Part shown: positions 505 to 59,210 of the stretch, in pieces | How positions within the stretch are numbered: position 1 is the first letter of the stretch | How the letters are laid out: every line of letters begins with the position of its first letter | Source of the DNA: Octopus vulgaris | Lineage: Eukaryota | DNA length: 64,000 nucleotides | Direction: 5' to 3' | Assembly (NCBI GenBank): GCA_951406725.2 | Contig: OX597824.1 | Location: forward strand, 87,110,001-87,174,000 | The notes under the pieces: model-generated | Databases searched by the model: none | The model's input: only the letters and a program-made list of their open reading frames with translations | Told to the model about the DNA's origin: nothing | Position numbers and translations under genes: made by a program

Positions 505-925
505 AATTACTGTTAGAAATAGCAGCCAAACTTCCTCAAATCACACTCTATACCATATTAAATAAAAGTGGAGGTGCATGGCTCAGTGGTTAGGCTGTTG
601 GACTCATGATTGTAAGATTGTGATTTTGATTCCTGGACCAGGTGATGAGTTGTGTTCTTTAGCAAAAACACTTAATTTCATGCTGCTCCAGTCCACTTAG
701 CTGGTAAAAAGGAGTAAAGCTGTGATAGACTGGCATCCCATCCAGGTGGAGAACATACACGCCAGAGAAACTCGGAAACCGGCCCTATATTCCCTCTCGG
801 AGTAATGTGGACTAACCATATTAAATAAAAGACATAAGATAATGTTGTCTCTGAAGGGATGGACACAGCTGGAATGCCTTTGATTTCAGGCTTGCTTGAT
901 CAAAGCTGACCAGGATCTAAACAAA
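505..925 (+). repeat. Unclassified interspersed repeat (family I), interrupted by a SINE at 569-814
   Basis: TTAGAAATAGCAGCCAAA...CTCAAATCACAC recurs at ~27590-27770 (+), ~18590-18930 (-) and ~45940 (+). Confidence 0.55.
569..814 (+). mobile_element. Family C CORE-type SINE, tail type 2
   Basis: A-box TGGCTCAGTGG and B-box-like TTTTGATTCC; CORE-like block; 17-bp TSD ACCATATTAAATAAAAG at 552-568 and 815-831. Confidence 0.85.
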
Positions 926-1262
926 CATAACATGGTAGTCCTGGTTTAGGATGAATGTTGCTGTAATTTAGCCCCAGGAGACATCGTCTCCAGCTGGCTA
1001 TATGACACGATCTGTGTCCTTATATTTTCGAACAAGGGGATCTAGCACCCCCACTCAGCTCAAAACAATATCTGTGTATCGCGAAGGGAATAACCCGGAA
1101 ATCATGATACACAGATATTGTTTTGAGCTGAGTGGGGGTGCTAGATTCCCTTGTTTGAAAATATAAGGACACAGATCGTGTCATATAGCCAGCTGGAGAT
1201 GATGTCTCCTGGGGCTAAATTACAGCAACATTCATCCTAAACCAGGACTGCCTTGTTATGTT
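924..1262. repeat. Foldback element: 157-bp inverted arms with 25-bp spacer
   Basis: 924-1080 is the reverse complement of 1106-1262 with only a few mismatches. Confidence 0.95.
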
Positions 1263-1489
1263 GGCAAACATCTTTACCTTCATTTTGGGGTCGATTAAAT
1301 AAGTACCAGTTACGCACTGGGGTCGATATAATCGACTTAATCAGTTTATTTGTCCTCTCATGCTAACGATTCTGCCAGCTCGCTGCCTTAATTAATAATA
1401 ATAATAATAATGTTAGATATTACTCATTAGAGCTTTGTTGTATCCACTTGAATAATAAATGACCAACATGATAGTGCTGCATCTATGGT

Positions 1490-1790
1490 TTTAGCATCAA
1501 CCAGTTTGACAGAAGCTGACAAGATGGAGGGCTGCATCAAGTTGCAGGTGTCTGTTTTAGCATGGTTTTTATGGCTGGATGCCGTTCCTAATGCCAACCA
1601 CTTTGCAGAGTGCACTGGGTGGTTTTTATGTGGCACCAGCAGGGATTCTTTTTATGGTGGCACTGGCACAAAGGTTTTCTATGTGACACCAACACGGATG
1701 CCCTTTTTATGAGGTACAACTATTTTTTTCTTCTTCCTCTTCTATGTGACTCTGGCACGAGTGCTCTTTTTACATGGCACTGGCCCAAAT
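1490..1790 (-). mobile_element. Family E RTE-associated non-autonomous retroelement, degenerate
   Basis: GGCTGGATGCCGTTCCTAATGCCAACCAC motif plus decayed subrepeats. Confidence 0.6.
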
Positions 1791-1832
1791 AAATAGAAAT
1801 TGATAGAATAAGTACCTGATTGAATTAAGTAC

Positions 1833-2067
1833 CTATTTCTTTATTACCCACAAGGGGCTAAACATAGAGGGGGACAAACAAGGACAGACATAGGTATTAA
1901 GTCGATTACATCGACCCCAGTGCGTAACTGGTACTTAATTTATCGACCCCGAAAGGATGAAAGGCAAAGTCGACCTCGGCGGAATTTGAACTCAGAACGT
2001 AACAGCAGACGAAATACGGCTACGCATTTTGCCCGGCGTGCTAACGATTCTGCCAGCTCGCCGCCTT
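1833..2067 (-). mobile_element. Family B tRNA-headed SINE, full monomer
   Basis: Head AAGGCGGCGAGCTGGCAG, B box GTTCAAATTC, central GCCTTTCATCCTTTCGGGGTCGATAAATTAAGTACC (resembles a conserved SINE central domain, MetaSINE-like from memory); 14-bp TSD ATTGAATTAAGTAC at 1819-1832 and 2068-2081. Confidence 0.9.
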
Positions 2068-2400
2068 ATTGAATTAAGTACTGGGATTGATACAGTCAAC
2101 CAAAACACTGAAAGCAGTGCTCCAGCATGGCTGCATTTCAATGACTGAAACAAGTAAAAGAAGCAACAGAAAATTCCCTCACACAAACAAACATTTGTGC
2201 ATTGATAGAAACACACAATACTATATGCAGACCTAAGAATACTACCTACATATGCATACATTGAAGCCCCTACAAACATACATATAAACACCCATATATG
2301 TGTATATATGTATGTATATGCATGTGTGCATGTATATGCATATTTTGTGAGGAATGACATATAGTTTAAACCAGTGGGGTTTGTGCGTCACCATACTCAC

Positions 2401-2559
2401 TTGACACCTATGTGTCTTAAAAGTGGAAACATTTGAGAGATCATTGCCTCTTAGAATTTGGTTGGGTTCGTTTTTGGAGCGCTTCCCATACAAATAATAA
2501 ATACCATTCCGCTTGTAGGATTTAGACAGTACCAGATACTTAGTAGATCTATAAAGTAC
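2401..2559 (-). CDS. Candidate 159-bp internal exon, phase 0-0 (VLYRSTKYLV...KTHRCQ), unknown product
   Basis: Acceptor TTGCAG|G and strong donor CAA|GTGAGTAT; only frame 0 is open; unique sequence; no recognisable domain; weak polypyrimidine tract. Confidence 0.3.
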
Positions 2560-3204
2560 CTGCAATGGTTCAAATAATTTCATCAACGATATAACACACA
2601 CAAATGAAATACATGCTAAGATAATTCACAAAAAAAAGGCAAATAAAAGAATGTTACAAAATGCAGAGAGCAGTGTACTACCAGGGATCAAATTAAGGGT
2701 TAGGTTCAAAATTCCAATACAACAATTGAATTCAAAACAAGACACTGGAAAATGGCTGGAGCATACAACTTCCAAAATGTAGCAAAAGCAACAATCAAGA
2801 TAAGGACACCAGTTTGACTAAAATAAACAGTATGCTTAATATAAAATAATTTTAAAAATTTTCTATTGAAGTAAAACATAAAATGGAGCAACATTTCCAA
2901 TACAAAGTTTACAAATAATTATTTTAATTAATATAACGTGTCTTGACTGGTACAACAATGCAGAGTGGACTATAATAACTGTTATAATTTAATTATTGAT
3001 AGCCTGATATGATATGATATTTTGGAATATAAAAATTCCTTCTTCAGATATCGTTAGTAATTAATTGAGTCACTGCTATAATCGGTTTTCCAATGGTTAA
3101 TGAAAATTGTTTTGTGGAAGCATCTCTGCAGTTGTCTCACGAAGCTCCTTCCTACGTATGGAGGCTAACAGCTGAGTAATTAGGTACCAATTCATCAAAG
3201 AAGT

Positions 3205-3350
3205 AGGAACGAGTGGAAAGAGGGAGTCCAAGGGAAAGGATCAAAATACTCATGACCACTGAACTTAAGATGCCGAACCTTACAAATGATATGGCAAGGG
3301 ATTGTAACAAGTGAAGAGACACCATATTGGAGGAAACTTGGCTGACCTAA
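3205..3350 (+). mobile_element. Highly decayed RTE-clade LINE ORF2 C-terminal fragment
   Basis: Frameshifted translation resembles G.RGRGRP...DL......MA.DR..W. Confidence 0.4.
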
Positions 3351-3368
3351 ACAAACATCAAGCTATAT

Positions 3369-3947
3369 CAGGGGTTCTCAATTATTTGTTATCTATGGAC
3401 CCCTTTGATTACTATTTTATTTGGGTGGACCCTAATAGCCATTCGATGTTTAAAAACTAGTTTTATAGAAACTTCTAAAATTCCCATTTTGTTTTCGACA
3501 CAATAACTTACGGCAGTTGAACTGTGTCAAATGTTAGAGAGGAAAGAAACCTAGCTGTTTCTTGTGATACATACCAATACATACATCGAAAGCAAATTTT
3601 TTTCAGAGGCCATTAACCCTTTCGTTACCAACCCAGCTGAAACCGCCTCTGGCTCTGAGTACAAATGTCTTGTTTTCATAAGTTTTGAATTAAAATCTTC
3701 CACCAAACCTTAGTCACAATTTATGTTCCTAACACTAGCTTAATGATAACTAAGTTATTTTGCTAAATTCTTTGTTATATTTAAAGTAATTGAAACAAAC
3801 ACGGAGCATCTCAAAATGAATACAGTAACGAAAGGGTTAAAATACCACTGTAGACCCTCACCCGTAATTTACTATTTTGTAACGTCAATCCCCAAAAATC
3901 TTATATGGATCTTCAGGGGCCATATGGACCCCAATTGAGAGCCATCG
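3369..3947. mobile_element. hAT-type MITE hosting a nested piggyBac MITE
   Basis: Ends CAGGGGTTCTCAA ... TTGAGAGCCATCG (decayed TIR); internal TGGACCCC repeats; related decayed copy at ~18943-19690. Confidence 0.6.
3617..3836 (+). mobile_element. Family F piggyBac-type MITE (~220 bp)
   Basis: TTAA TSD on both sides; TIR CCCTTTCGTTAC / GTAACGAAAGGG. Confidence 0.9.
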
Positions 3948-4046
3948 ATCTATCTATCGATCTATATGTATGTGTATATATATTTATTTATATGTGTGTG
4001 TTTGATGTTGAGCTTTTAACACGCACACACACACAATATATATATT

Positions 4047-4446
4047 GGCGTAGGAGTGGCTGTGTGGTAAGTAGCTTGCTTACGAACCACATGGTTCCAG
4101 GTTCAGTCCCACTGGATGGCACTTTGCGCAAGTGTCTTCTACTAGAGCCTCGGGCCGACCAAAGCCTTGTGAGTGGATTTGGTAGACGGAAACTGAAAGA
4201 AGCCTGTCGTATATATGTATGTATATATGTGTGTATATGTTTGTGTGTCTGTGTTTGTCCCCCCAGCATTGCTTGACAACCGATGCTGGTGTGTTTATGT
4301 CCCCGTAGCATAGTGGTTCGGCAAAAGAGACCGATAGAATAAGTACTGGGCTTACAAAAAATAAGTCCTGGGGTCGATTTGCTCGACTAAAGGCGGTGCT
4401 CCAGCATGGCCACAGTCACATGACTGAAACAAGTAAAAGAGTAAAA
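4047..4446 (+). mobile_element. Family A SINE (tRNA-like head, internal TA/TG microsatellite, GTAAAAGA tail)
   Basis: GGCGTAGGAGTGGCTGTGTGGTAAG...GGTTCAGTCCC head; more than 15 homologous copies or fragments in the window. Confidence 0.9.
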
Positions 4447-4626
4447 TATATATATGTTTGGATTTTACAAACTGGAGGTGGGGGTTCACTCACTAAATAT
4501 AGTTGAATTTATTCGTTTATTGAATGCAGAGGATTCCCTCTGTCACTGCAACCATTTTCGTTTTGCACAGCTGTTTAAAACTGAAATGCGAAACTCAGAA
4601 TAGCAATGGAGAGAAACTACACTACT

Positions 4627-4659
4627 GAGAGAGAGAGGGGGGAGGAGGGAGAGAGAGAA

Positions 4660-4692
<33 letters not shown>

Positions 4693-4812
4693 GAAAGAGA
4701 GAGAGAAAGAAATAAAGAGAGAGAAAGAAAGAGAGAGAAAGAGAGAGAGAGAGGAGGGAGGGAGAGAGAGATAGAGAGAGAGAGATAGAGAAAGAGAGAG
4801 AGAGAGAAAGAA

Positions 4813-4870
<58 letters not shown>
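4627..4870. repeat. (GA)n polypurine microsatellite
   Basis: Direct inspection. Confidence 0.95.
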
Positions 4871-5584
4871 CCAAGACTGGTTCATGTGTGTTCTGTGCTT
4901 GTGCACACATACACATATGTAAATTAAATTTATTGATGCAAGTTAACACTAGCAAAACACATGCCAACATTTTAAACAAAGGAAAACAGAATATATGTAA
5001 TATTTACTGTAATGATAATAATACTGCGTGTGAGTGTGTGTGCATATGCATGTGTGCACATGCGCATTATTATGTCTGTCGTACGATATCTGCCTCTGAG
5101 TTTACCAGCACATACACGTCGAAAGATTGATATCATTTTTCAAATGGTGCACCTACACTGCCTGTCTATTGTCTCGTATGGGTTTCGGCATTTCTTTCTT
5201 ATTTTTCTGTTTTGAATCATTAAGGAAGAGCTTTAATGGAATCTATCAGAATTATGGTCAAATGGGAACATAACTATGTTCGTTGAAAAATCAAAAATCA
5301 AAAAAAAATGTCCAAAGAAAAAACAAAAAAGCGATCTAAAAATTTTCTGCATGCAGACATAGAGAGACTGATGTGAAAGGTGGGAGGAATTCTGTTGATG
5401 GCATGTGGCAACGTTGTCATTAAACTGATACGTCACAAGAAATAGAAGGTTTATGTCCTGCCAAGTTCTCATGTTAATATTTCTACAAACATTATTTATA
5501 TCTGTACATTTCTCTCTGTTAGAATGTAAATGTATATGTTTACATTAATATATAGCTCACAGAAGAGATCCAGATATTTTCCAT

Positions 5585-5960
5585 CGGTGGCACATAAGAG
5601 AACCATCCGAACGTGACCGTTGCCAGCGCCGCCCCGACTGGCCTGTGCTGGTGGCACGTAAACAGCACCATCTGATCGTGGCCGTTGCCAGCCTCGCCTG
5701 GCCTCTGTGCCGGTGGCACATAAAAAGCACCATCCAATCGTGGCCATTTGCCAGCCTCGTCTGGCACCTGTGCTGGTGGCACGTAAAAAGCTACCAATAC
5801 ACTCATGGAGTGGTTGGCGTTAGGAAGGACATCCAGCCGTAGAAACATTGTCAGATCAGACTGGGCCTGGTGCAGCCTTCTGGCTTTCCAGACCCCCAGT
5901 TGAACCGTCCAACCCATGCTAGCATGGAAAGCGGATGCTAAACGATGATGATAATGATGA
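5585..5960 (+). mobile_element. Family E element with ~62-bp internal tandem subrepeats and (GAT)n tail
   Basis: GGTGGCAC at 5586, 5650, 5712, 5775; GTGGTTGGCGTTAGGAAGG; 3' end CCAACCCATGCTAGCATGGAAAGCGG...AAACGATGATG. Confidence 0.8.
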
Positions 5961-6934: not shown

Positions 6935-7123
6935 ATAGGAAGAAAGAGTGAGAGAAAATTGTGATGAAAGAGTACAGCGGGGTTCACCACTACCCCCTGC
7001 TGGAGCCTCATGGAGCTTAGGTGTTTTTGCTCAATAAACACGCACAATGCCTGGTCTGGGAATCGAAGCCGCGTTCTTACGACAGTGAGTCCGCTGCCCT
7101 AACCACTGGGCCACTGCGCCTCT
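6935..7123 (-). mobile_element. Family D tRNA-headed SINE
   Basis: Minus-strand head GAGGCGCAGTGGCCCAGTGGTTAGGGCAGCGGACTC...TTCGATTCCC; second copy at 54301-54566. Confidence 0.8.
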
Positions 7124-7501: not shown

Positions 7502-7537
<36 letters not shown>

Positions 7538-7849: not shown

Positions 7850-7996
7850 CGCATGCATGTATGAATATATGTATATATGTAATATAAGTATGTATGTATG
7901 TATGTATATATGTATGTATGTATATATGTAATATATGTATGTATGTATATATGTATGTATGTATATATGTAATATATGTATGTATGTATATATGTA

Positions 7997-8092
<96 letters not shown>

Positions 8093-8255: not shown

Positions 8256-8308
8256 GCACACAAACATAATTCTTAACCTGCACTGAGATGGGGGAGTCAA
8301 TACGCATC

Positions 8309-8341
<33 letters not shown>

Positions 8342-8813
8342 CACGCGTGTGTAGTTATGCTATTTGAATTTCAAAAATACTCATTATATATATGTTCACA
8401 GCATGGAGTCACGTATGCTAATACTCTCATATACACACACACACACACACACACACAATCAATATTATACGTTTGTATGTTTTTTTTAATTGCATGTGCT
8501 AAAATTAAAACCGTCTTATTATATCGTTAGCTGTTCTTAGTTATTATCAGTCTACAGAAAAAAAAAACGACAATTATTTTTATTTCAAGATATATTAGGA
8601 TTTCATATTTATTAGAGGATGCATTATTCTGCAGATGGTTATCCATCTAATCTCAGCTTAATAGGTGCCGAAGTTGGCATGCAGTGGGACTGAATCCCAA
8701 AATAACATGGTTTAGAAGTTAATTTCTTAAGTCACACACCTATACCTGTGCCACCTCTCTATATATAAGAGACTAAAGTGTATGTATGCTGCTATATATA
8801 TATATACACGCAT

Positions 8814-9137
8814 AATACAAAATGGGACAAGAACACAAAACATCCGGACAGTTAGGTAATACAAAAAGGAGCAACAAACCATCCAGATAGACGATACAAA
8901 GAAAACAAGGACGGGTCATTCGAAGCCTTTTATCCTCAGTCAAGCACCAGATTATCCTCGCAATTTCGGCTGATTATATCAAGAATAATCAGCTAAAATT
9001 GTGAGGATAATCTGGTGCTTGACTGAAGAAAGAAATGTTTGAATGACCCGTCCTTGTTTTCTATCTGGATGTTTTGTTGTCCCTTTTTGTGTCACCTAGC
9101 TGTCCAGATGTTTTGTGTTCTTGTCCCATTTTGTATT
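8814..9137. repeat. Foldback element: ~155-bp inverted arms with 7-bp spacer
   Basis: 8814-8977 pairs with 8985-9137 with several mismatches and one indel; inserted in (TA)n. Confidence 0.9.
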
Positions 9138-9138
9138 T

Positions 9139-9188
<50 letters not shown>

Positions 9189-14512: not shown

Positions 14513-14590
14513 AAGAAAATAATAATGATAATAACAATAATAAGGATAAAAATTTTTAAATTAATAAAAAAAAAATTAAAAAAACCTTAC

Positions 14591-14935
14591 CTCTTTAACA
14601 TATTTTTTTGTATTTGTTCTATTCTTTTGATTATTTTGGAAGAAAGATTTCGTTCTCCAAAAGAATGAATTTTGGGGGTGAGTAACTTTGTTGATTTTTG
14701 CATGTGAGTAGATGGGATCGGTTATTTCTGCCCGATACAAATCCCTTTTCCAAACGGAAGGTTTTAACGAAGATGTCCTACTTTCGAGACATTTATTTTC
14801 TAACTGGCATTGTGATTTTGAAAACGGTCTATCTACAATAATGTTACCATCATAATCAGTTCGAACTACTGCTGCAATCCTAGCGCCTAAGGACAATCTT
14901 TGGTTGCCGTCGACATTAAAATTCACCTGGTTCAT
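14591..14935 (-). CDS. Candidate alternative first coding exon (MNQVNFNVDG...KKYVKE, 115 codons), unknown product
   Basis: CAAC-ATG start with upstream in-frame stop; 345-bp open frame in unique, CpG-retaining sequence; consensus donor GAG|GTAAGG in phase 0. Confidence 0.45.
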
Positions 14936-16566
14936 GTTGGAACACTCAGAGATGTCAATAACTGAACATATTCATTAATAAGCAAACAGATTCTCTTCCC
15001 GCTGATGCTATGGTTTCCTGTTTCAAGAATAGGAAGTACTGATCGATAGTCTAGAATATATTTTTGCTTTTTTACTTTGCTTCCAGATTCGTAGCTCATC
15101 TTTCATCCAAAGTCTTAGCTGAACTAATAACAACATAAAATGGTATATTCCTACATTACCGACTTCTTCAAATAACCATAGAATATAAATATAGTATTTT
15201 TTCTAAAATGCCACATTTTCAGTCGTAATATTTTGATTTTTCATGATGATGATGATAATAATAATAATAAAAATAATTAATAATTTTAATAATAATAATA
15301 ATAATAATAATAGAAATCAACAGAATATGTTTAAAATCCCAAGATTCCACCTGGAAAAATCTCCAGTTACTTTTACAGAATTTACAATAAGCTTCATTTC
15401 GCAACTAATTTGTTAATTCTGTCTTTTTTTTCTCTCTTTAATGAAGCAATAATTTCCTTTTACATTGCTTTCAATATTTTAATGTTTTAAACAAATCGCA
15501 TTATCAATGAAATGTATAAACTATTGATTTAAAGAATTTTTGTTTTTGTAAACAGAAAGATAAAACTCCTCTCTCTACAGAAGATCAATATTGCGCATTT
15601 AACGACAGCTTCGTTACAACATTAGCTTCTATAAATACCAAACCTTACTATTTTTCAACTAACCTTTTTTCCTCCAGGCAGATGGCAAATCAACAAAACA
15701 GAAAACCTCCGCTATTGAATTATTATTTTGTTTTTCACTATCAATTAATTAAAACATTTTAAATCAGGACAAAATATATGAGATTCATGCATTAACATAA
15801 ATATCATTGAAGATTAGAAATTCTGTTTTTTTTTTTTTGTTTCCTTCTTTATCCTAGAGGTTATTGTCAAATAAGGGAAGAAAATGCAGCCGAATAAAAA
15901 ATTGTGAAGGAATGCAACTTTTCCTTAAATTATAGAATAATGATAAAAATAATAATAATGATGATGATGATGGTAATGAATTAATTGAAATTTAACCAGT
16001 AGTAACTTGTGACTCCTATGTTGTAAAAATATCCACTCCAGAGGCAACTTGCTTTCCATGCTTGTTGAATGAATGATTATAGATAATGAATAGATCAACA
16101 GAGCAGCTGCTAAGTGAAATGTAACCAAATTAACAGAAAAAAAAAAAAAGAAAATGTAGTGTTTTCAATGGTTCTTGAACAATTTGTACAATCCGAGAAA
16201 GACAGCTGAAGTATATAAGGACAAAAATAATCAAAACTGGCGACAAATTTAGTAAACATCAAATCAATGACTAGCAAGATTGATTCTGTGAACTCCTGAT
16301 GACAGACAGAGAGAAATAGAGAGTAACAGATGTTTGTTACAAATTCAAAAAAGTTCAATCATATGCTTGTTAAACGGAAAGACAATCCAGAATTTCACAA
16401 GTGGTATGTGGGAAAAAATCTACATTTGTAACTGCTGTTAAAATATTATATAGAATGTTAACTTTTTCCTTATAATATTTCTAAGGAAATACACAGTTAG
16501 TGTGTTTGAAGTTCTTTTGCCGACAATCAATAATTTGTAAAACTTACTATTAAAATAAGTAACATA

Positions 16567-21480: not shown

Positions 21481-21651
21481 GTTTCTAAATGTCTTTGACA
21501 AACATTTACCTGGGGAATTAAGGGTTATACAAATGAATTAAAATAAAATTCAATATTGAAGTAATCTTTTGAAGTGTTGAACTTAGAAAATTCATCATCG
21601 AAAAACATGTTAATGTAATGGTTAATGAAAAAAAAAGCAAAAAGAACTCAC

Positions 21652-22494
21652 CTGGTGTATAATCATGTCATCGGGACTTGGGCTACGTGTATTTCTCCCT
21701 TCAGAGCTGATACTAGGTTCCTTAGGACTAGGACTTCGACACGCTTCTTTATTAATGTCGAATTCTGGGCTTTTACCATGACACAAACTCGTCCTTTTTC
21801 TAGGAGTTGGCGTCGGGACTGGGCTGTGCATCGAGTCACGGCGTGTTTCGCTATCATTCTCTTCCGAAGTAGCAGCTATGTTAGCAGTTTCCTCATCGGA
21901 CATACTTGGGCTTGGGCTATGACAGACATTTGGTTCATGTGGTTCTTCATCGCTAGCTGGAGTCGGGCTTGCAGGCCGCTCCGTCGGACTAGCACTATCG
22001 CTGCGGCTGTGAGATGGAGACTTGCGCTGTCCTTCCTCCTGCGTTTGTGGAATTTCTATTTCGACTTCAGCTTCGATGGCATTATCCTCTTCTGTCACTT
22101 CAGAAGCAGCCTCCTCTGCTGGTTTGCTTTCTTTTTCAATATCATGAACCACCATCTCATCCATTGTATCAGAAACAACAACGATATCATCTTCGTCATT
22201 ATTGTTATCAATTTCTTTCTTCAAGGAAGGTAAAGTGTCATACAAAGGACTGGATTCTTCAGTCTTGAGTGTAACACTTATCTCCTGACCATCACCCGAT
22301 TCTTTCATAACATTTTCGTATGTATCGTCATTGTCCGCTTTACCATTCACACTGACATTCTCATACACGGGATGAGCAAGGGGCTCACTGTTAGCATAGA
22401 TGTGTCCTTCGTTTAATTCAGACATGTCTTCGTCGTCTTTTACCTCATAATCTGTATCAAAATTATTTGAAATACCGTTTTCTTTTGGCTTTTC
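21652..22494 (-). CDS. Internal coding exon (843 bp, 281 aa, phase 0-0): acidic, Ser/Pro-rich disordered segment with clustered tyrosine motifs; gene not identified
   Basis: Branch point TACTAAT at 22533-22527; pyrimidine tract TCTCTCTTTTCTTGTCTTTGCAG|GAA; stop-free frame; raised GC; donor CAG|GTGAGT. Confidence 0.85.
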
Positions 22495-22794
22495 CTGCAA
22501 AGACAAGAAAAGAGAGACAATTTTTAATTAGTACGGAATTAGGAATTAAGTTTTAAATATTAAGCAGGATCAGAAATTAGGTTTTAATTTTAACAATATT
22601 TAAAGAAAAATTTCATGTAAGTAACCCTTATGACACCTGGTTCTATGATGCTAACTTCCTGGTTTAAAGTAATCTGAATTAAAACTCTCCATCAAGATAC
22701 CATGTCAATTTATGATTCAAACACCAGCTTAATAACAACTGAGTTATTTAAATAACTCCATCATTAGTTTCAGAATTAATAAAAAATACCACCT

Positions 22795-23212: not shown

Positions 23213-23250
23213 CCTTTATATTTCAGACGCAAAGGCCCATCTTCAGAAGG
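23213..23250 (-). ncRNA. Candidate minimal type I hammerhead ribozyme (Penelope-like)
   Basis: CCTT-CTGAAGA-T-GGGC[CTTTGC]GTCT-GAAA-TA-TA-AAGG: stem I CCTT/AAGG, wobble-rich stem II, palindromic ATAT stem III, then ATTAAA. Confidence 0.5.
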
Positions 23251-23643: not shown

Positions 23644-23824
23644 CTACAAAGAGTTTTTTAAGTTTGTAGTGCTGAGTTTATTCAAGTCCTCACAAGGGAT
23701 TAGATACACATAGCCACAAGAGGTCTCTCTGCCGTTCAAGAATTTGGACCTGGAGATCTCCATTTCCAGCGACTTCGAGGGCAACCTCCCAGTGGTGTTG
23801 AGCATCAACAAAGAGACCTTGACT
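23644..23824 (-). mobile_element. Possible Penelope-like GIY-YIG endonuclease remnant
   Basis: SCGYVYLIPCED resembles the PLE motif G.VY.IPC..C; lies 5' of the hammerhead on the same strand; the YIG half is not recognisable. Confidence 0.3.
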
Positions 23825-24672
23825 ATATTTTGTTGTCTTGGGAGGGTCATTATGACAATAATAAACACATGCACTGGTTCTGTTTCAATTCCTTTACTAT
23901 AATCAGTCGATTTACTCTCTTTTACTTGTTTCAGTCATTTGACTGTGGCCATGCTGGAGCACTGCCTTTGGTTGAGCAAATCAACCCCAGGACTTATTCT
24001 TTGTAAGCCTAGTACTTATTCTATCAGGCTCTTTTGCTGAACCGCTAAGTTATGGGGACATAAACACACCACCATCAGTAGTCAAGTGATGCTGGGGGGG
24101 ACAAACACAGACACACAAACACACACACATATATATACGACAGGCTTCTTTCAGTATCTGCCTACCAAATCCACTCAGAAGGCTTTGGTCAGCCGGAGGC
24201 TGTAGTAGAAGACACTTGCCCAATGTGCCACGCAGTGGGAATGAACCCGGAACCATGTGGTTGGTAAGCAAGCTACTTACCACACAGCTCACTCCTGCGC
24301 CTATGTTAACATTTCATGAATTAACTAATTGATTAACCGTTTTGTCAATCAATCAATCAATCAGCTAGATTCGTTTAAAGTCCTTTTGTCATCATTTGTG
24401 ACATCTTCAATAACCTGAAACAGGGCTGGAAGAGTGAGGGCCTATCATTGATGAAATCACAAACAGCAACAAAAGGACGTTGCTGATTGACTGACTGACT
24501 GATTGAATAATTAATCAAACAACTGATTAGTAAATTTGATAAATGTTAACGAAGTGAAACAGAACCAGTTCGTGTGTTTATTAATAATAGCATTATGACT
24601 CTTCTGAGGCATAAAAAAAAAAACCTGTTTCAATACAAGTTCACATCAAGAATCTTGCAAACCAAACACAAT
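23825..24672. repeat. Old, diverged asymmetric foldback element, left arm interrupted by a family A SINE
   Basis: 23825-23890 pairs with 24552-24612 and 24305-24410 pairs with 24447-24550; homologous to 44901-45133. Confidence 0.75.
23911..24303 (-). mobile_element. Family A SINE
   Basis: Full-length reverse-complement match. Confidence 0.9.
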
Positions 24673-24716
24673 AACAAAAGGAAATAGATTTTAGACATTT
24701 TGTTTTTTAAAAGTGC

Positions 24717-25214: not shown

Positions 25215-25623
25215 TTTTTACTTGCTTCAGTCATTTGATTGTGGCCATGCTGGAGCATCACCTTGAAGGGATTTAGTTGAACAAATCGACCCCAGATTTT
25301 ATTTTTTTTTAAAAGCCTAGTACTTATTCTATTGGTCTTTTTTGCTGAACTGCTAAGTTACGGGGATGTAAACACACCAACATTGGTTGACAAGCGATGA
25401 CATGGGGACAAACACAGACACACACACATACAAATACATACATATATATGTAAATATATATATAAATAACAGGTTTCTTTTAGTTTCCGTCTACCAAATC
25501 CATTCACAAGGCTTTGGTTAGCCCAAGGCTATGGTAAAAGACACTTGCCCAAGGTGCCACACAGTGGGACTGAACCTGGAATCATGTGGTTGAGAAGCAA
25601 GCTTCTTACCACACAGCCACACC
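25215..25623 (-). mobile_element. Family A SINE
   Basis: Full-length reverse-complement match. Confidence 0.85.
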
Positions 25624-25812
25624 TTATTTACAATTGACGGATATTTGTCATCATCTTGTTTGTTGTTAACACAGTGTTTCGGCTGATGTGCCCTCCAGCC
25701 TTCATCAGGTATATCAGCTGAAACGTGTTAACAAACAAGATGAGGACAAATATCCATCAATTGTAAATAACGTAAATTATGTACATAAGTCCTCATCTCT
25801 TAAATATAGAGC
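25624..25812. repeat. Asymmetric foldback element centred on a hammerhead-like core
   Basis: 25624-25686 pairs with 25713-25770; minus-strand centre CTGATGA-A-GGCTG[10 nt]CAGCC-GAAA; second copy at 26193-26320. Confidence 0.8.
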
Positions 25813-25932
25813 TGTAGTATCTAATCGGTACAGAGCCGACATTAGACTTTAATGGAGACATATAGAGAAACTCCATCAAAAACTAGCTTGTCTTTCAAAC
25901 CATCTAACTTTCCTGTGTAGAAGCTAATACCA

Positions 25933-26190: not shown

Positions 26191-27039
26191 AGGACACACC
26201 TGAATGAAAGCTAGAGGGTAGTATATCAGCCGAAATGTGTTAACAACAAACAAGATGAGGACAAATATCCATCAATTGTAAATAATGTACATAATTCCTC
26301 ATCTCTTAAATATAGAACAGCCACACCTGTATCAATTACTATTTTCTAATTTTCCTTTTGTTTTTTTTTGGCCAACAAACTATTTGATTTTCACTGTTTG
26401 CATTTATTGGCAAAAACGAAAAAAAAAAAAGAAAGAAAAATGACCATCCCCATATATAATAACAATATCTGTTTCAACACACAACTTCACATCAAGAATC
26501 TTCGCAGAACAAATACAATTTATCAATTACACACAAACACGAGGAGACGGAGAAGTGGAGGTGGCTTCGAAATAACAACCGAGATGTTTAGAGATGTATT
26601 GGAGCGACAGTTAATCTTCTACAAATTCAAACATAGCTGTACGTTTAACCAGCGTAAGATACACAATAACAGAAAGCACGCCTGAAACAAACAGCAGGTT
26701 AATGGAGCTTAATGAGAATTTCCTGTGTATTGATTAAAACAATGACATATTTACAGGTGTTTTGTTGGTTATTTTGCTTTTTTTTTTTTCGGCTTTTTTC
26801 CCCCCCCCACTTTTTATTGAAACTGGGTTATTGATCTGCATCAGGATGTTTAATGAGATCCTTATCTCATCTACGGAAGGACCGCGCCGATTGATATTGT
26901 AGAGTTTTAAAAGTCATGAGATAGGATTTACAGACGTTCTGACATACTAACATGGATCACAAAGGAATTTTAATTCAACAACATATGCTAATTAATGTTA
27001 ATTGATCCATCAAATGAGGGATTTTCTCTCTAATATCAA

Positions 27040-27569
27040 TCATGGGGCAAACTGCAACCCACACAATGCAACAAAAAAATTACCTATTTCTTTACTACCC
27101 ACAAGGGTAGAGAGGACAAACAAGGACAGACAAACGGATTAAGTCAATTATATCGACCCCAGTGCGTAACTGGTACTTAATTTATCGACTCCAAAAGGAT
27201 GAAAGGCAAAGTCTACCTCATCGGAATTTGAACTCAGAACATAATGGCAAACAAAATACCTATTTCGTTACTACCCACAAGGGGTTAAACACAGAGAGGA
27301 CAAACAAGGACAGACAAACAGATTAAGTCGATTACATCGACCCCAGTGCGTAACTGGTACTTAATTTATCAACTCTGAAAGGATGAAAGACAAAGTCGAC
27401 CTCGGCGGAATTTGAACTCAGAATGTAACGGCAGACGAAATACGGCTATACATTTCGCCCGGCATGCTAACGATTCTGCCAGCTCGCCTTTCTTTTCAGT
27501 AATGCGGCCCCACATGATGTTGAGCAATGACTCATGTGGCCCACTTCTCCAAAAAGTTGCCCATGCCTG
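27040..27569. mobile_element. hAT-type MITE hosting a family B dimer
   Basis: CATGGGGCAAAC ... GTTGCCCATGCCTG ends with GCGGCCC subterminal repeats; related copy at 45248-45437. Confidence 0.55.
27081..27489 (-). mobile_element. Family B SINE dimer
   Basis: Two bodies joined at AAATACCTATTTC (~27254-27266); single head. Confidence 0.9.
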
Positions 27570-42129: not shown

Positions 42130-43095
42130 TATTTCTTTATTGCCCACAAGGGACTAAACATAGAGGGGACAAACTAGGACAGACAAATGGATTAAGTCGA
42201 TTACATCGACCCCAGTGCGTAACTGGTACTTTATTTATCGACCCCGAAAGGATGAAAGGCAAAATCGACCTTCACGGAATTTGAACTTAGAACGTAATGG
42301 CAGACGAAATACCTATTTCTTTACTGCCCACAAGGGGCTAAACATAGAGGGACAAAAACAAGGACAAAGGGATTAAGTTGATTACATCGACCCCAGTGCG
42401 TAACTGGTACTTATTTAATCGATCCCGAAAGGATGAAAGGCAAAGTTGACCTCAGCGGAATTTGAACTCAGAACGTAGCGGCTGATGAAAGACCTATTTC
42501 TTTACTACCCACAAGGGGCTAAACATAGAGAGGACAAACAAGGACAGACAAAGGGATTAAGTCGATTACATCGACCCCAGTGCGTAACTGGTACTTATTT
42601 AATCGACCCCGAAAGGATGAAAGGCAAAGTCGACCTCGGCGGAATTTGAACTCAGAACGTGCGGCTGATGAAATATCTATTTCTTTACTACCCACAAGGG
42701 GCTAAACATAGAGAGGACAAACAAGGACAGACAAAGGGATTAAGTCGATTACATCGACCCCAGTGCGTAACTGGTACTTATTTAATCGACCCCGAAAGGA
42801 TGAAAGGCAAAGTCGACCTCGGCGGAATTTGAACTCAGAACGTGCGGCTGATGAAATATCTATTTCTTTACTACCCACAAGGGGCTAAACATAGAGAGGA
42901 CAAACAAGGACAGACAAAGGGATTAAGTCGATTACATCGACCCCAGTGCGTAACTGGTACTTATTTAATCGACCCCGAAAGGATGAAAGGCAAAGTCGAC
43001 CTCGGCAGAATTTGAACTCAGAACGTAGAGGCAGACGAAATACACCGATAAGCATTTCGTCCGGTGTGCTAACGTTTCTGCCAGCTAGTTGCCCC
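42130..43095 (-). mobile_element. Family B pentamer: one head plus five tandem 181-184-bp bodies
   Basis: Units start (plus strand) at 42130, 42314, 42495, 42678, 42861; units 3 and 4 read as identical; flanked by older B copies (41945-42125, 43110-43325). Confidence 0.95.
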
Positions 43096-44596: not shown

Positions 44597-44900
44597 TATA
44601 TTCCGGTAAAGGGAAATTTATCTTATTAGGAAACCTCTAATGACAATCTTCCCTAAACACACGATTGTGTAAGGCAGCGTTTCCCCAAAGCAGAGCATGA
44701 CGTAATTTTTTGAGTTATCAGTTACTTCAGAATGAGGTGTAACAAATGAATAATTAGATTTGCAATAGTGTTAATTAAGCTGCTTATGTGTGTGTGTGTG
44801 TGTGTGTACGTGTACAGTCATAATGCATTAAAGAATATTCTGCGTTTGTATCGAGCCCTGTAATTAATCACTTCTGGTGAACCAATAAAGATTTACATTT

Positions 44901-45133
44901 CGTTTTTGGATTTGGTTTGCAAGATTCTTCATATGAGTTCGTGTGTTGAAGCATATTCTGTTGTTTCTGGGGAGAGCCATTTTCTTTTTGTGCCTTATAA
45001 TGTAACACACTCACTGGTAAAATTTCCACTTATTTTAGGAAAATAAAAATAAGAAATAAGTGGAAATTTTACCGGCGAGTGTGTTACATTATAAGACACA
45101 AAAAGAAAATGACTCTCCCCAGACACAACAGAA
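44901..45133. repeat. Asymmetric foldback element (~80-bp arms)
   Basis: 44956-45035 pairs with 45054-45133; the unpaired extension TTTGGTTTGCAAGATTCTT also occurs inverted at ~24640-24670 and ~26485-26515. Confidence 0.9.
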
Positions 45134-54100: not shown

Positions 54101-54158
54101 GATTTTATTTAATGCTAAATACCAACAAGCAATTATAAATAAAGTATTTTCTTATATA

Positions 54159-54800
54159 GGCGCAGGAGTGACTGTGTGGTAAGTAGCTTGCTTACCAGCC
54201 ACATGGTTCTGGGTTCAGTCCCACTGCGTGGCACCTTCTACTATAGCCTTGTGGAGTGGATTTGGTAGACGGAAACTGAAAGAAGCCTGTCGTATATATA
54301 TCACCGTGACCGACCGGGCCATCAGATGTTGCTACACATCGCTGGTCACAATGCGCTTTGCATTGTTTTAGCCTTCAAATGACGCCACCCCGCTGGTTAA
54401 CAGAAGAAAGAGAACAGCATGGATCGCCACCACCCCCCCTGCCGGAGCATCGTGGAGCTTTGGGTATTTTCGCCCAATAAACACTCACAACGCCCGGTCT
54501 GGGAATCGAAACCGCGATCCTACCACCGCGTGTCCACTGCCTTAACCACTGGGCCATTGCGCCTCCACACACACACATATATGTTTGTGTGTGTATGTGT
54601 TTGTTCCCCCCAACATCGCTAGACAACCGATGCTGGTGTGTTTACCTCCCCGTCACTTAGCGGTTCGGCAAAAGAGACCGATAGAATAAGTACCAGGCTT
54701 ACAAAGAATAAGTCCTGGGGTCGATTTGCTCGACTAAAACGGCGGTGCTCCAGCGTGGCCACAGTCAAATGACTGAAACAAGTAAAAGAGTAAAAGAGAG
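54159..54800 (+). mobile_element. Family A SINE with a family D SINE (54301-54566, minus strand) nested in its internal microsatellite
   Basis: A head 54159-54300; D matches 6935-7123; A tail resumes at ~54580. Confidence 0.85.
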
Positions 54801-55249
54801 TATAAATAGGACAACAACAAAATACGAAATTTTCCATGAATTCTTGTAAAGTCCTTCCTCGTTCAGCTGCACTATTTTGCAGTATAGTAGATCTGGCACT
54901 GGGAAAAACGACTTCCTGGTGCCCCACCTCCACATGCGTTACTACCACAAGAATGTGCTGGTTTTACACAATGGCTGATCTAGACACACACACACACGTA
55001 GGTGCAGTTTCCAAGCATGTGGTCTCAGGTTCACTCCCACTGCACAGCACCTTGTGCAAGTGTCTCCTAATATAAGCCCAGGCCAACCAAAGTGTTGAGT
55101 GGATTTAGTATGGAAACTTAAAGAAACCCATTATGTATGTATGTATGTATGTATGTATGTATGTACGTACGTAGTACGCACGCACGTGCGTGCGTGTGTG
55201 TACATGTATTTGTAATGTGCAAATCAGTTGATTTCTTTTTCTGATAATT

Positions 55250-55337
55250 ACTGCCTGCCTGCCTACCTACCCACCCACTCGCCTACCTACCTACCTACCT
55301 ACCTACCTACCTACCTACCTACCTACCTACCTATCTT

Positions 55338-55420
<83 letters not shown>
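55250..55420. repeat. (CTAC)n-(CTAT)n tetranucleotide repeat
   Basis: Direct inspection. Confidence 0.95.
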
Positions 55421-55421
<1 letters not shown>

Positions 55422-55537
55422 CTTACATACACATAAGTGCGGGAATGAAATTTGCTTGGGGGATTCAAGCCCAGATGCAAAATCTTTTATACAAACAAGG
55501 TTGCTTTTCCCAATCTTAATGTCAAAGCAAAACATAG

Positions 55538-55569
<32 letters not shown>

Positions 55570-55572
<3 letters not shown>

Positions 55573-56120
55573 GTTCTGATGCAGTACCAGGCAGTGGATC
55601 GCATGGCTTCTCAACTGATTGGAAGTGTTATCGTGTACATTGTTTTGTCTTGGTATAAAAGATGGGCTACAGCAAATATTCTGCTCAATACCACAGATTT
55701 GCTTGTCAGTTGTTTGACCTTAACCAGTTGAGCATGTCCCTTAGTGGCTGACGATATGTGCATCTCTGATCACAAGCAGAAGTAGTGGGGGAGCATCATA
55801 GCCATGTGTTGAGAGGGATTCTTTGGGGTTTGAATAATTCACCTCTGGAAACATGGGTGTTTTGTTCAACATCCTTAAACGATCCTTATTCAGGGACCCT
55901 TTGAGCAGAATGGGCTACTCAACTTGAAGAAAACTCTAACTGGGCCCCCACCTGCAAGGTGATGCACTGTTTATCTTGATATGAGATCACCATGTCGCGC
56001 ACATATGGTTGTGATGCATGTGCCTGGTGTACCCTTATCAGACAAGTAGTCATGATGGGTATACTGGGCTTCGTATATTTTACAGCAGTGTCACTTTGAT
56101 GGCATGCACTGCTCTCTGCT
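55570..56120 (-). mobile_element. Probable retroelement 3' fragment ending in (TTA)n
   Basis: GC-richer complex block abutting (AAT)n inside a MITE; no ORF recognised. Confidence 0.35.
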
Positions 56121-56244
56121 CTGGCAACGATCAGGCTCGGATGGTACTTAGCGCTCCACTAGCACGGATGCCAGTTATCGAATTTGATTTCGATTACTTC
56201 AACACTATTATTATTATTATCATTATCATCATCATTATTATTAG

Positions 56245-56420
56245 AAATATTTTTTGTCCAGCTTTTTACATTCTGAGTTCAAATTCTGCCAAGGTTGACT
56301 TTACCTTTCATCCTTTCAGGGTCGATAAAATAAGAACCAGTTAAGAACTGGGGTCAATATAATCGATTATCCCCCTCCACCAAATTTCAGGCCTTGTGCC
56401 TATAGTAGAAGGGATTACTC

Positions 56421-56466
<46 letters not shown>

Positions 56467-57015
56467 GAAGGTGATGAGCTGACAGAATCATTAGCACACC
56501 GGACGAAATGCTTAGCAGTTTTCCATCTCTCTTCGTGTTTTGAGTTCAAATGCTACTGGGGTCAACTTTGCCTTTCATCCTTTCGGGGTCAATAAATTAA
56601 GCACCAGTGAAGCACTGGGGTCAATGCAATCGACTGGTACCCTCCCCACAAAATTTCAGGCCTTGTGTCTTTAGTAAAAAGGATTATTATTATCGTTATT
56701 ACTATATGCCAGGGGCTGCTTAGCTTTCTGGTACAAAGCACTCAGCCGGTATCTGAGAGTTACAGGGTTCGATTCTCTGTAGTTACCCTGCAGGCAACAT
56801 TAAAAAAAACAAAACAAACAAGCTGGCAGAATCATTAGCACACCAGGCTTAGCAGCATTTTATCCGTCTTTATGTTCTGAGTTCAAACCCTACCGAAGTT
56901 AACTTTTCTTTTCACCCTTTCAGGATTGCTAAGTACCAGTTGAGTGCTGGGGGTCAATGTAGCCGACTTACCCACCTCCCCAGAATTGCTGGCCTTGTGC
57001 CAAAATTTGAAATCA
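56245..57015 (+). mobile_element. Three family B short-tail SINEs separated by (TAT)n
   Basis: Copies at ~56245-56415, 56468-56685 and 56821-57015. Confidence 0.8.
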
Positions 57016-57212
57016 ATGATTATTATTCAATTAAATCAGATTAATTTAATTATAGAAAAGTAATGTTACAAATCAGTCCGAAAATGTTTCTACGATCGTT
57101 TGTCTTGGCAATGAAGTTTTTCAAGAGGACACTCAAAGCATTTTCATTGCCCTCCCAAAAATTTTAGGGGGTGCACTTGCAACCCCCCACCCCCACTTTT
57201 TCTGAGCCTGTG

Positions 57213-57455
57213 GAGGCACGTGGCTTAGTGGTTAGAGTGTTGAACTCATGATTGTAAGGTTGTGGTTTCGATTCCTGGACCAGGCGATGCGTTGTGTTCT
57301 TGAGCAAAACACTTCATTTCACGTTGCTCCAGTTCACTCAGCTGGCAAAAATGAGTTATCCTTCGACGGACCGGCGTCCCGTCAAGGTGGGGAATTTCTA
57401 CGCCACTGAAACCGGGAAACCGGCCCTTATGAGCCCGACATGGCTCGAAAAGGAA
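57213..57455 (+). mobile_element. Family C CORE-type SINE, tail type 2
   Basis: Matches 569-814; imperfect TSD TTTTTCTGAGCCTGTG / TTTTTCCGAGCCTATG. Confidence 0.85.
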
Positions 57456-57546
57456 CATATATTTTTTTTCCGAGCCTATGCAAAGATGTCTGTGCACCCT
57501 TATAATGTAACAAGGAAAGTTAATGTTTTTCTCATTTACTTTTTAT

Positions 57547-57710
57547 CACCACCACCACCACGACCACTTCTGCCAACACCACCGCCACCATCATGATCAT
57601 CATCATCACCATCATCATCACCACCACCACCAACACCATCATCACGCCCACCACCACAACACCACCACCACCACCACCATCATCATCCACGTCACCGCCA
57701 CCTTCACCAT
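57547..57710. repeat. (CAC)n/(CAT)n degenerate trinucleotide repeat
   Basis: Direct inspection. Confidence 0.9.
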
Positions 57711-58638
57711 ATTTAACATCCATTCTCATTGCTGGTTAGCATGACTTGTACATTAAAACCAACCCCCATCGCATACACACTGTTAAATTTACCCCTACTC
57801 CCTAAGACCCTTTTTTTTTTTATCAGATATATTATTATTCAATCTACCTAATTAATAATTTAGGACCCCTCCTCCTACATTCCCCTACTTGCTTTCTCTC
57901 CCTTACTCTCTGTCCCTCGTCCCTCATTTTCTATTTTCTGCCCACGATTTGAAAGGGATATATATACGATGGGGATGGGAACGAAAAAGGAAATGTGTGC
58001 TTTAGAGGAAGCGTAATTATTTAAATTCCTTTCAGCTTTTTACTCTGCTATTATCCCAACCACACAACACTACATTGGCCCATCTCTGCTACATCCTGCA
58101 CACCACCACCACTGCCACCACCGCCACCGCACTTACAAATTTCCCTCACTTATCATTATGACTCTCCCCACCACCACCACGACCTCTTCAGTGAATACAC
58201 GGATCAACTGACCCGTTCTGGTCACCATGCACTTTCTACTTTCAGCGATTTTTATCTTTTCTTTTCTCAGCTTAAAATTTACAGAATTATCTTGCCTCAA
58301 CATCATAAGTGCTGCCTGCCATGGCCGAGACATTAAGGGACCTGTTTCACAACTATGTGGTCCCAGTTTGATCCCCACTATCTAACATATTGGGCAAAGC
58401 GTCTTCTGTTATGGCCCCAAGTTGACTTGTGGATGAAATTTAGCAGACAAAAACCCATTATCTCTCTCTCTCTATGTGTGTGTGTATTATGTATGTATGT
58501 GTGTGTATACACATACACACACACATATATACACACAGTGGAGCCTTTATCTATAAATACAATCCATTCCAGAATCCTGTTTGCGAACTGAATTGTTCAT
58601 TACATGAGTAATAGAGATACATGTAAATAAGGAAAATT

Positions 58639-58722
58639 CATTCCAAGCCTCACCCAAACTCCACATAAAAGCATGAAATGATGTTATATTTGTCCAGCTA
58701 ACAATAACATATACATACATAC

Positions 58723-58763
<41 letters not shown>

Positions 58764-58968
58764 ATCCAAACATGAAAACACAACAACGCGAGGACGTAGA
58801 ACAATTATAGTATTATTAGACGCTCAGGAAGGAAGGAAAGAAGGAGGGTTTAACGTTTCGAGTGGAGCTCTTCGTCGGAAACATAGGAGAAGGAGAGATC
58901 CAGAGAAGGGAAGACAGACGAAAAAAAATTGCCAACGGTACACACACAGTCACATTTATGTATATATG

Positions 58969-59015
<47 letters not shown>

Positions 59016-59066
59016 CATTATTGGTGAATTGAAGAAATGGAGCTGAACGCAGATTGAACAGAAATC

Positions 59067-59125
<59 letters not shown>

Positions 59126-59210
59126 CATATGTATGTATTTGCTATTGTTAGGTGGACAAATATAACATCATTTCATGCTTTTATGTGGAGTTTGGGTGAG
59201 GTTCGGAATG
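58639..59210. repeat. ~85-bp inverted repeat enclosing (TA)n tracts and a hammerhead-bearing insert
   Basis: 58639-58725 pairs with 59125-59210. Confidence 0.9.
58848..58882 (-). ncRNA. Candidate minimal hammerhead ribozyme, core variant CCGACGA
   Basis: GTTT-CCGACGA-A-GAG[CTCCA]CTC-GAAA-CG-TT-AAAC: stems I and II pair perfectly; palindromic ACGT stem III. Confidence 0.5.

Follow-up and report, generated by a model that had tools for sequence, protein, structure and literature searches.

How did six long inverted repeats come to lie in one 64,000-nt stretch of the Octopus vulgaris genome, and what part did the hammerhead ribozyme motifs found near them play? The stretch (assembly GCA_951406725.2, contig OX597824.1, positions 87,110,001 to 87,174,000 of the forward strand) is referred to as the window and is numbered from its first base. 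An initial annotation had ascribed the foldbacks to Penelope-like elements (PLEs) whose reverse transcripts fold back at a ribozyme. The repeats are labelled E1 (0.9 kb), E2 (8.8 kb), E3 (23.8 kb), E4 (25.6 kb), E5 (44.9 kb) and E6 (58.6 kb), and positions written +n or −n are relative to the predicted hammerhead cut, +0 being the first base 3′ of it. Five of the six hairpins (E1–E5) are back-to-back tail ends of PLE-type elements from high-copy families, and all five families, the 45-kb family included, carry a hammerhead motif predicted from sequence. E1–E5 are read here, quite probably correctly, as single insertions in which two 5′-truncated 3′ends stand head to head, each derived from a separate cDNA primed on one of the two target strands. 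Comparisons with published work refer to the accessible parts of the articles cited, from which (PMC3846280, PMC8557442) it is already known that PLE ends form hairpins with hammerheads.

Architecture of the insertions

All six inverted repeats that had been reported were recovered, at or close to the positions given for them: E1 at 924-1262, with ungapped 157-nt arms 97% alike; E2 at 8778-9173; E4 at 25621-25773; E5 at 44956-45133; E6 at 58635-59214, with 125-nt arms 92% alike; and E3 as a degenerate pair at 23825-24680, interrupted by a short interspersed nuclear element (SINE). Family copies were searched for in the genome (2.8 Gb, 227 contigs), which returned 2,912 (E1), 5,082 (E2), 853 (E3), 4,719 (E4) and 2,455 (E5) first-look candidates, with 40 scored per family, and 35 first-look candidates for the E6 arm. 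Family alignments were built from 20-30 loci each. E1, E2, E4 and E5 were of common build: two head-to-head copies of the 3′ end, an inner junction specific to each copy, and an extension on one outer end. This one-end tail, giving two fixed 3′ ends, was found in E1, E4, E5 and E2, and for E3 in the window copy and its family alignment only. The unequal arm lengths that had been pointed out were confirmed, and correspond in the family alignments to a PLE tail on one arm.

Arm geometry was counted in E1 and E4 insertions chosen by exact tail pattern only, to avoid bias. For E1, 90 of 198 hits were taken (the first 30 and, from the 70 listed after these, 60, passing over the final 3 and 7 that had been sampled before, among them 2 known foldbacks), and removal of 2 second hits within one insertion left 88 insertions; for E4, the first 90 of 1,964 hits were taken, all on one contig. 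An adjacent inverted arm was present in 63/88 E1 and 53/90 E4 insertions. The outer ends of E1 fell at +222 to +237 in 80 of the 88 tail arms and at +164 to +183 in 43 of the 63 inverted arms. Among two-ended insertions, the tail-less arm extended further 5′ in 29/43 (E1) and 22/40 (E4), and the arms were equal in 2/43 and 6/40. Where the tail-less arm is the longer one 5′ and the other arm holds the tail, copying of one arm from its partner is impossible in either direction. Target site duplications (TSDs) of 7-15 bp were found in 23 of the 43 two-ended E1 insertions, compared with 32 of 1,806 mismatched pairs, and the TSD enclosed the whole two-armed unit. E5 copies had TSDs of 7-22 bp (23/30 versus 24/870 controls; a few lay in TA runs), those of E4 were seen by eye in the family alignment, and those of E2 were obscured by (TA)n.

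Hairpins had been described as centred on hammerheads, which was not the rule: both ends lay inside the hammerhead at 3/63 E1 and 3/53 E4 junctions, and it contained either end at 25/63 and 11/53. Eighteen of the 63 E1 junctions never reached it, and 34 showed an overlap of 1-4 nt. Junctions far from the ribozyme were also found in a young PLE family of the same genome that bears an open reading frame (ORF), in which palindromes of 3.1 and 4.4 kb (fetched loci L214 and L215) are joined within the ORF. This Neptune-like family (L211-L215 and L226-L228, e.g. L214:859-5234) is ~99% alike, has frames of up to 717 codons, forms multi-kb head-to-head palindromes, and has a CCGA-type hammerhead-like core in its 3′ region. 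A link between the six elements and this family was considered and rejected, there being no DNA match to its pseudo-long terminal repeat (pLTR), and the family was kept as a control for ORF junctions.

In the proposed mechanism, the PLE enzyme would cut both target strands, each of which would prime its own cDNA; the cDNAs would begin at a fixed pair of RNA start sites and would have their ends joined head to head through short microhomology. Two-strand priming is suggested by analogy with purified anole Poseidon protein (PAc, from Anolis), for which a dimer model, cutting and extension of both strands, and two start sites spanning the tail were described (PMC11167929). The hammerhead would be near many junctions mainly through its position: the start sites are 60-230 nt away from it, a distance at which short cDNAs would tend to stop. 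A minority of cDNAs would run off a cleaved RNA end, the likely reason why 5′ ends are locally over-represented at the predicted cut. The templates would differ by family: a 353-nt ORF-less monomer for E1, probably an RNA polymerase III (Pol III) transcript from a tRNA-type head for E4, and probably a Naiad-type element for E2.

Insertions of endonuclease-positive (EN+) PLEs have been described as an inverted truncated copy with an optional tail and a variable TSD (PMC3846280, PMC8557442). The octopus hairpins resemble Adineta Pen2a/Pen2 (PMC3846280) in the head-to-head inverted 5′-truncated copy, the one-end extension, the 8-10-bp TSD and the microhomology or palindromes at junctions. They differ in arms so short that only end-repeat sequence is left, and in tails of ~35 nt (E4) or ~55-57 nt (E1, E5). 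Self-priming was proposed there for the inverted arms, and the octopus arm geometry argues against it. As with PAc (PMC11167929), two internal reverse transcriptase (RT) start sites span the tail, both target strands would be cut and extended, and the hammerhead, dispensable for insertion in that system, lies upstream of the start sites. Inverted arms were left unexplained in the PAc work and no RNA ends were seen at the cut, whereas octopus genomic 5′ ends are modestly in excess there; E4, in contrast to PAc, has a tRNA-type promoter in its repeat. The origin of PLE inverted arms and the role of the hammerheads are stated as open in the accessible parts of PMC8557442 and PMC11167929.

Element families behind the hairpins

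The E4 family is, by its sequence, the end repeat of an RT-encoding EN+ PLE. Its full repeat opens, 35 nt downstream of the ORF stop codon, with a tRNA-type head (A and B boxes, read by eye against the consensus; ARAGORN reported no tRNA in it), which lies upstream of the hammerhead and is absent from the window copy. Among 42 anchor hits at the ORF end (from 40 loci found with or fetched for the ORF, 2 of them fetched twice and 2 without a hit), the A box followed in 33; 32 had the B box, and 23 had the hammerhead. The 569-aa open frame matched RVT_1 (E = 2.7e-6), and its nearest Atlas clusters were animal RT/HTH_animal proteins, one set GIY-YIG (47%). The ORF was reached by 6 of the 90 sampled E4 insertions. 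The families had been called non-autonomous and PLE- or retrozyme-like; a stand-alone non-autonomous status does not apply to E4, whose repeat lies inside an ORF-bearing element, and the retrozyme-like part of the description is borne out by the ORF-less E1.

Within 10 nt of the start of the tRNA-type head lay 31 of 143 E4 5′ ends (p = 9e-8 versus flanks), a peak such as run-off on a Pol III transcript would be expected to leave; an end cluster at about −116 was set aside as a mapping break at a (TAA)n tract. The placing of a putative tRNA-derived Pol III promoter within a terminal repeat, or as the head of short retroposed copies, is shared with tRNA SINEs and with the Helenus, Ajax and Cassandra terminal-repeat retrotransposons in miniature (PMC10886601). 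E4 differs from these in that the head stands behind the stop codon of an autonomous PLE and the copies have PLE scars, not those of long interspersed nuclear elements (LINEs) or LTR elements. The head being within the end repeat of an autonomous element, E4 is not an independent non-autonomous tRNA SINE. A second E4-family copy at 26198-26316, 400 nt from E4 and inverted relative to its left arm, has a single arm, a tail and a decayed hammerhead.

E1 was followed with a query of its 3′ end only, and several copies ran on beyond the tail, entering the region that lies upstream of the hammerhead. The tandem period gives an ORF-less, head-to-tail unit of 353 nt, with tandem junctions in L246, L247, L253, L254 and L256; the monomer seam was crossed by 14/151 arms, and 3/88 insertions ran beyond the tail. 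Folded as a circle, the unit is predicted to form a rod with the hammerhead at its tip (z ~ −6 versus 40 shuffles, for the consensus and one real copy). A non-coding head-to-tail monomer with one predicted type I hammerhead per unit, E1 fits, at the level of genomic sequence, the definition of metazoan non-LTR retrozymes (150-450 nt; PMC7229834). The monomer was covered, seam included, by assembled contigs of four runs guessed to be RNA, but so it was in the large unlabelled run; such contigs do not tell circles from genomic tandems, and the coverage is evidence of neither circles nor expression. Low GC, a type I hammerhead, a highly paired circular fold and TSDs >4 bp are further likenesses to non-LTR retrozymes (PMC7229834; bioRxiv 10.64898/2026.07.22.740005); E1 differs in occurring mostly as dispersed truncated pairs, not arrays, and in its PLE integration scars (tail and inverted arm), which go unmentioned in the accessible parts of the retrozyme literature. 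A PLE origin of retrozymes has been argued from co-occurrence and pLTR similarity (bioRxiv 10.64898/2026.07.22.740005).

In the E1 monomer (L235:1263-1615) the flanks of the hammerhead, −89 to −33 and +0 to +58, are complementary, as if an old ribozyme-centred foldback had become fixed in a master copy. A second retrozyme-like repeat of ~340 nt (L207:2780-3250), 71% alike to E1, lies in (TA)n and, like E1, has its stem II flanked by an extra base at each side. Annealing of two E1 cDNAs through the monomer rod was considered, and junction pairs inspected by eye gave no fit.

E2 did not fold as a type I hammerhead, and no plain core was found upstream of the GAAA in its family copies. What had been taken for a half-site at 8.97 kb is a real motif, namely the GAAA block of a putative rewired hammerhead that runs in the order stem II 5′ strand, extra helix, stem III, cut, stem I, stem II 3′ strand, GAAA, second strand of stem III, second strand of the extra helix, second strand of stem I, CUGANGA. 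In an 11-copy alignment 93% of cells were paired, with 3 compensatory changes and weak covariation (18/500 shuffles as high); a scan of 1.47 Mb for this topology gave 8 matches, 6 of them E2 copies, and none in reversed sequence. In the right arm, the family match opens on the base that directly follows the predicted cut, or no more than 3 nt from it. Readings as a hepatitis delta virus (HDV)-like or twister ribozyme were considered by eye and dropped.

The candidate E2 fold shares with type-SGC hammerheads (PMC10085705) the order of cleavage block, GAAA block and CUGANGA core, the pseudoknotted stems and the pairing of all three stems. It differs in that the stem II 5′ strand lies upstream of everything, which breaks the chain between A9 and 10.1, a link assumed in that paper to be uninterruptible; E2 has no intact block C, in which CUGANGA is directly followed by its stem II strand. 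It differs further in an extra 7-bp helix that would brace the fold, and in its host, an animal retroelement. By eye, the published Naiad_Obim consensus shows the same block order at its 3′ end, with different stem sequences; the E2 motifs were not found in the supplement of PMC8557442. The (TA)n targeting and the wiring shared with this consensus make E2 a likely (TA)n-targeting Naiad-type element.

E3 relatives were 68-82% alike, some with a second arm. The stretch CTGAAACAGGGCTG at 24415-24428 had been taken for a core and is not one; decayed hammerheads lie to either side of it, on opposite strands. Nor did the absence of a core at 45 kb hold for the E5 family: stem II and GAAA were present in 6 other copies, directly upstream of the usual junction, and a U3-A8 core in one. 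The tails of E3 (24610-24680) and E5 (44897-44970), otherwise different families, are ~75% alike, which suggests related mobilising enzymes. A short 3′-end fragment of an E3/E5-related family was noted at 26432-26519, and a ~45-codon open frame at 23690-23830 (−), a possible exon or part of an old element, begins exactly at the E3 outer end.

Hammerheads, 5′-end maps and rival readings

Minimal type I features (a CUGANGA or U3-A8 core, GAAA, stems I and II, an extra base at 9/10.1 and a short helix III) were found in E1, E3, E4, E5 and the element enclosed in E6 at 58.85 kb. Helix III was palindromic in every minimal hammerhead of this set except that of E3, and the G10.1-C11.1 closing pair was present in E3, E4, E5 and the enclosed element. 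In E1, the 3-bp stem II has one extra base on either side and the purine before GAAA faces an inserted A, hence no plain closing pair. Of the cores first proposed, several had been misplaced or misread. The 25.7-kb core stood in full, as a minus-strand minimal type I hammerhead with a stem I of 4-5 bp, an extra A after the core, a stem II of 5 bp and a palindromic helix III. The 58.85-kb core was likewise a full minimal hammerhead, in a separate (TA)n-inserted element off the symmetry centre. The 1.09-kb core is hammerhead-derived but partial, with only the 3′ two-thirds of the family hammerhead present: the E1 right arm retains stem II, GAAA and the palindromic helix III, together with the predicted cut site (1109/1110). 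Short stem I, the extra base at 9/10.1 and palindromic helix III are shared with the minimal type I hammerheads of metazoan PLEs (PMC4209133), as are the U3-A8 variant (E5) and opposite-strand pairs 100-700 bp apart (as in E3); E1, with its extra base on both sides of stem II, and E2 differ from this type.

A hammerhead descriptor, the check suggested at the outset, gave two strict matches in the window, one at 58878 and the other, unrelated, at 23246; reversed controls gave none. The 25.7-kb copy, which has a mutated helix III, was not picked up. No hammerhead family was among the 150 best of 169 Rfam matches (E ≤ 5); the matches among those listed paired microsatellites or hairpins with miRNA models and were dismissed as chance. 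Folded one sequence at a time, two of the hammerheads did no better than their shuffles, which is what motifs of this minimal kind would lead one to expect.

Of the arms that reached the hammerhead, 111/127 (E4) and 40/71 (E1) read through it. Ends within 5 nt of the predicted cut numbered 17/151 for E1 (1.5 per nt versus 0.33-0.42; p = 9e-5) and 11/143 for E4 (p = 1e-4), and in a biased E2 sample 7 of 41 arms, the window right arm among the 7, started at −4 to +1.

If a single cDNA or antisense template had snapped back at the hammerhead stem or a local palindrome and copied itself, as the initial annotation had supposed, junctions in stem II or local hairpins would be expected, and some do look like this (L017, L028, and E1 pairs near +38/+55); two E4 joins have as their centre a palindrome of 6 nt immediately 3′ of the cut, and in 4 of the 5 window PLE copies the hammerhead contains or borders one or both inner ends. 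This is nevertheless unlikely, and as a general route it is contradicted. In the majority of two-ended E1 and E4 insertions counted above each arm holds sequence lacking in the other and could not have templated it, the ribozyme is missed by most junctions, the outer end of the inverted arm is set by a second, fixed start site and is not random, and kilobase palindromes have their junctions in an ORF. MITEs (miniature inverted-repeat transposable elements) or DNA transposons of the foldback kind, multiplied as fixed palindromes, would account for thousands of candidates per family with long terminal inverted repeats (TIRs), but the corresponding test, for fixed TIR and TSD signatures and no PLE linkage, came out negative: junctions, arm lengths and TSD lengths vary, many copies are single-armed or tandem, and E4 is fused to an RT ORF. 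Because junctions and TSDs are variable, this explanation is refuted, and we give it next to no credence. Two independent adjacent insertions in opposite orientation, or later recombination or deletion, might be thought of given the high copy numbers and the chance inverted repeats formed by SINE pairs in the window. One TSD brackets the two-armed unit, however, the arms directly adjoin in 63/88 and 53/90 insertions, and tail and tail-less ends pair systematically; such an origin is refuted for E1, E4 and E5, is possible for single old copies such as E3, and is very improbable as a general account. Two-cDNA integration is retained, and the PLE origin first claimed is upheld for E1–E5. Several observations count against it. 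No adjacent inverted arm was found in 25/88 E1 and 37/90 E4 insertions; the tail arm extended further and contained the other arm in 12/43 and 12/40, which fold-back could equally give; no TSD was found in 20 of the 43 E1 insertions, and that of the window's own E5 copy was not recovered by the strict test. E2, E3 and E5 were sampled by whole-element queries only, which favour similar junctions. The arm-ORF linkage that had been called for was seen directly in E4, and no autonomous partner or ORF was linked to E1, E2, E3 or E5 in the fetched loci. In E4 itself the RVT_1 score of 27.7 is below the curated cut-off of 29.6, Pfam GIY-YIG gave no match to the ORF, and its putative GIY-YIG endonuclease and Poseidon label come from a by-eye reading of motifs.

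Whether hammerheads were cut in vivo is a separate matter, on which the genomic 5′-end excess near predicted cuts leans modestly towards occasional cleavage. Two-cDNA integration could also have taken place with no such cutting, the excess at the cut then reflecting RT pausing at RNA structure together with palindromic microhomology. Most arms read through, the peaks are several bases wide (the E1 excess is centred on +2 to +4 and is not base-sharp), 4 of the 11 E4 cut-site ends come from the two palindromic joins, and the larger E1 end peak, at +21 to +60 (53/151), lies in the 3′ strand of the predicted rod, away from the ribozyme; minimal hammerheads, moreover, cleave poorly and are dispensable for insertion in vitro (PMC4209133, PMC11167929). 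The local excess at the predicted cut in both E1 and E4, the E2 arm starts, and the window E5 arm that starts at −3 speak for cutting, and pausing with microhomology, in the absence of cutting, is left as a serious but lesser possibility. The fullest version of the two-cDNA account, in which the foldbacks would record PLE integration, in vivo hammerhead cleavage (the core-opened E2 type included) and Pol III transcription from the E4 head that spawned thousands of PLE-mobilised SINE-like copies, is put forward tentatively, at slightly short of an even chance.

Other features of the window and meaning

Coordinates of the arms and of the element enclosed in E6 are collected in Table 1.

Table 1. 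Hairpin arms and associated features, in window coordinates.
Feature	Position	Strand	Remarks
E1 left arm	924..1084	−	5′-truncated copy of 353-nt monomer, ~+152 to −8; by blast to family monomer and family alignment
E1 right arm	1083..1277	+	−28 to ~+168 (inner start site); 2-nt overlap with left arm
E2 tail	8768..8813	−	(TA)n and ~30-nt tail, on this arm only; one-sided likewise in L067, L071, L079, L080
E2 left arm	8814..8978	−	GAAA block 8960-8972; stem I 3′ strand and CUGAGGA core 8933-8944
E2 right arm	8979..9137	+	core 9023-9029
E3 tail-less arm	23825..24414	−	old PLE-type family; SINE insertion 23917-24304; decayed hammerhead 24378-24413
E3 tail-bearing arm	24415..24680	+	decayed hammerhead 24445-24479; 3′ end common with E5 family
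E4 tail-less arm	25624..25710	−	whole predicted minimal type I hammerhead 25669-25710; outer end adjoins SINE
E4 tail-bearing arm	25711..25814	+	begins in loop II, 3-nt microhomology; tail ~25784-25814
E5 tail-bearing arm	44897..45032	−	tail 44897-44955, ~57 nt
E5 tail-less arm	45033..45133	+	starts 3 nt before predicted cut (45035/45036) of family minimal hammerhead
E6 left arm	58635..58759	+	interior piece of old unrelated repeat and (TA)n; family continues on both sides
Enclosed single-arm element in (TA)n	58761..58955	−	predicted minimal type I hammerhead 58848-58881; descriptor match
E6 right arm	59090..59214	−	local inverted duplicate of 58635-58759

E6 falls outside the PLE origin that had been claimed for it. 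Its arm is the interior of an unrelated repeat, for which an inverted second arm was found in 0/28 other loci of the family. The E6 arms are 92-93% alike and 77-93% (mostly 80-86%) alike to other family copies; being closer to each other than to the family, they point to a local duplication later than the old repeat. Snap-back or a template switch at the self-complementary (TA)n would explain it, possibly during insertion of the enclosed element, of which 14 other single-arm copies were present in the fetched loci. Between two (TA)n tracts of E6 lies a 54-nt non-repetitive insert (59015-59068) with no match in the fetched loci compared with it.

Elsewhere in the window, an exon-like 301-codon frame at 21625-22527 (−), acidic and Ser/Pro-rich with plausible splice sites, had no Pfam or Atlas match, and a second candidate exon-like frame lies at 14579-14971. 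A 183-nt SINE-like unit is repeated head to tail five times at 42130-43043 (copies 93% alike), and two more copies lie at 27109-27443. The strongest additional inverted repeat, at 61853-62502, consists of two adjacent tail-to-tail copies of an abundant SINE.

PLEs are active in Octopus vulgaris (PMC13282606), an article whose accessible part makes no mention of these structures. Titles and abstract openings in the literature, outside subscription papers and Repbase, gave no tRNA-headed PLE repeat, no core-opened hammerhead and no two-cDNA account of inverted arms, and literature listings and abstract openings likewise no retrozyme-like monomer with PLE scars. Arm geometry provides a countable test, which favours two-strand priming over self-priming, and the 5′-end maps point to specific template ends. 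E2 is, on the evidence of its sequence, a candidate natural hammerhead topology outside the six described permutations. The scars of E1 are evidence that PLE machinery moves a retrozyme-like repeat, a connection previously argued from co-occurrence and sequence similarity, and E4 suggests how a SINE-like element could arise out of a PLE end repeat.

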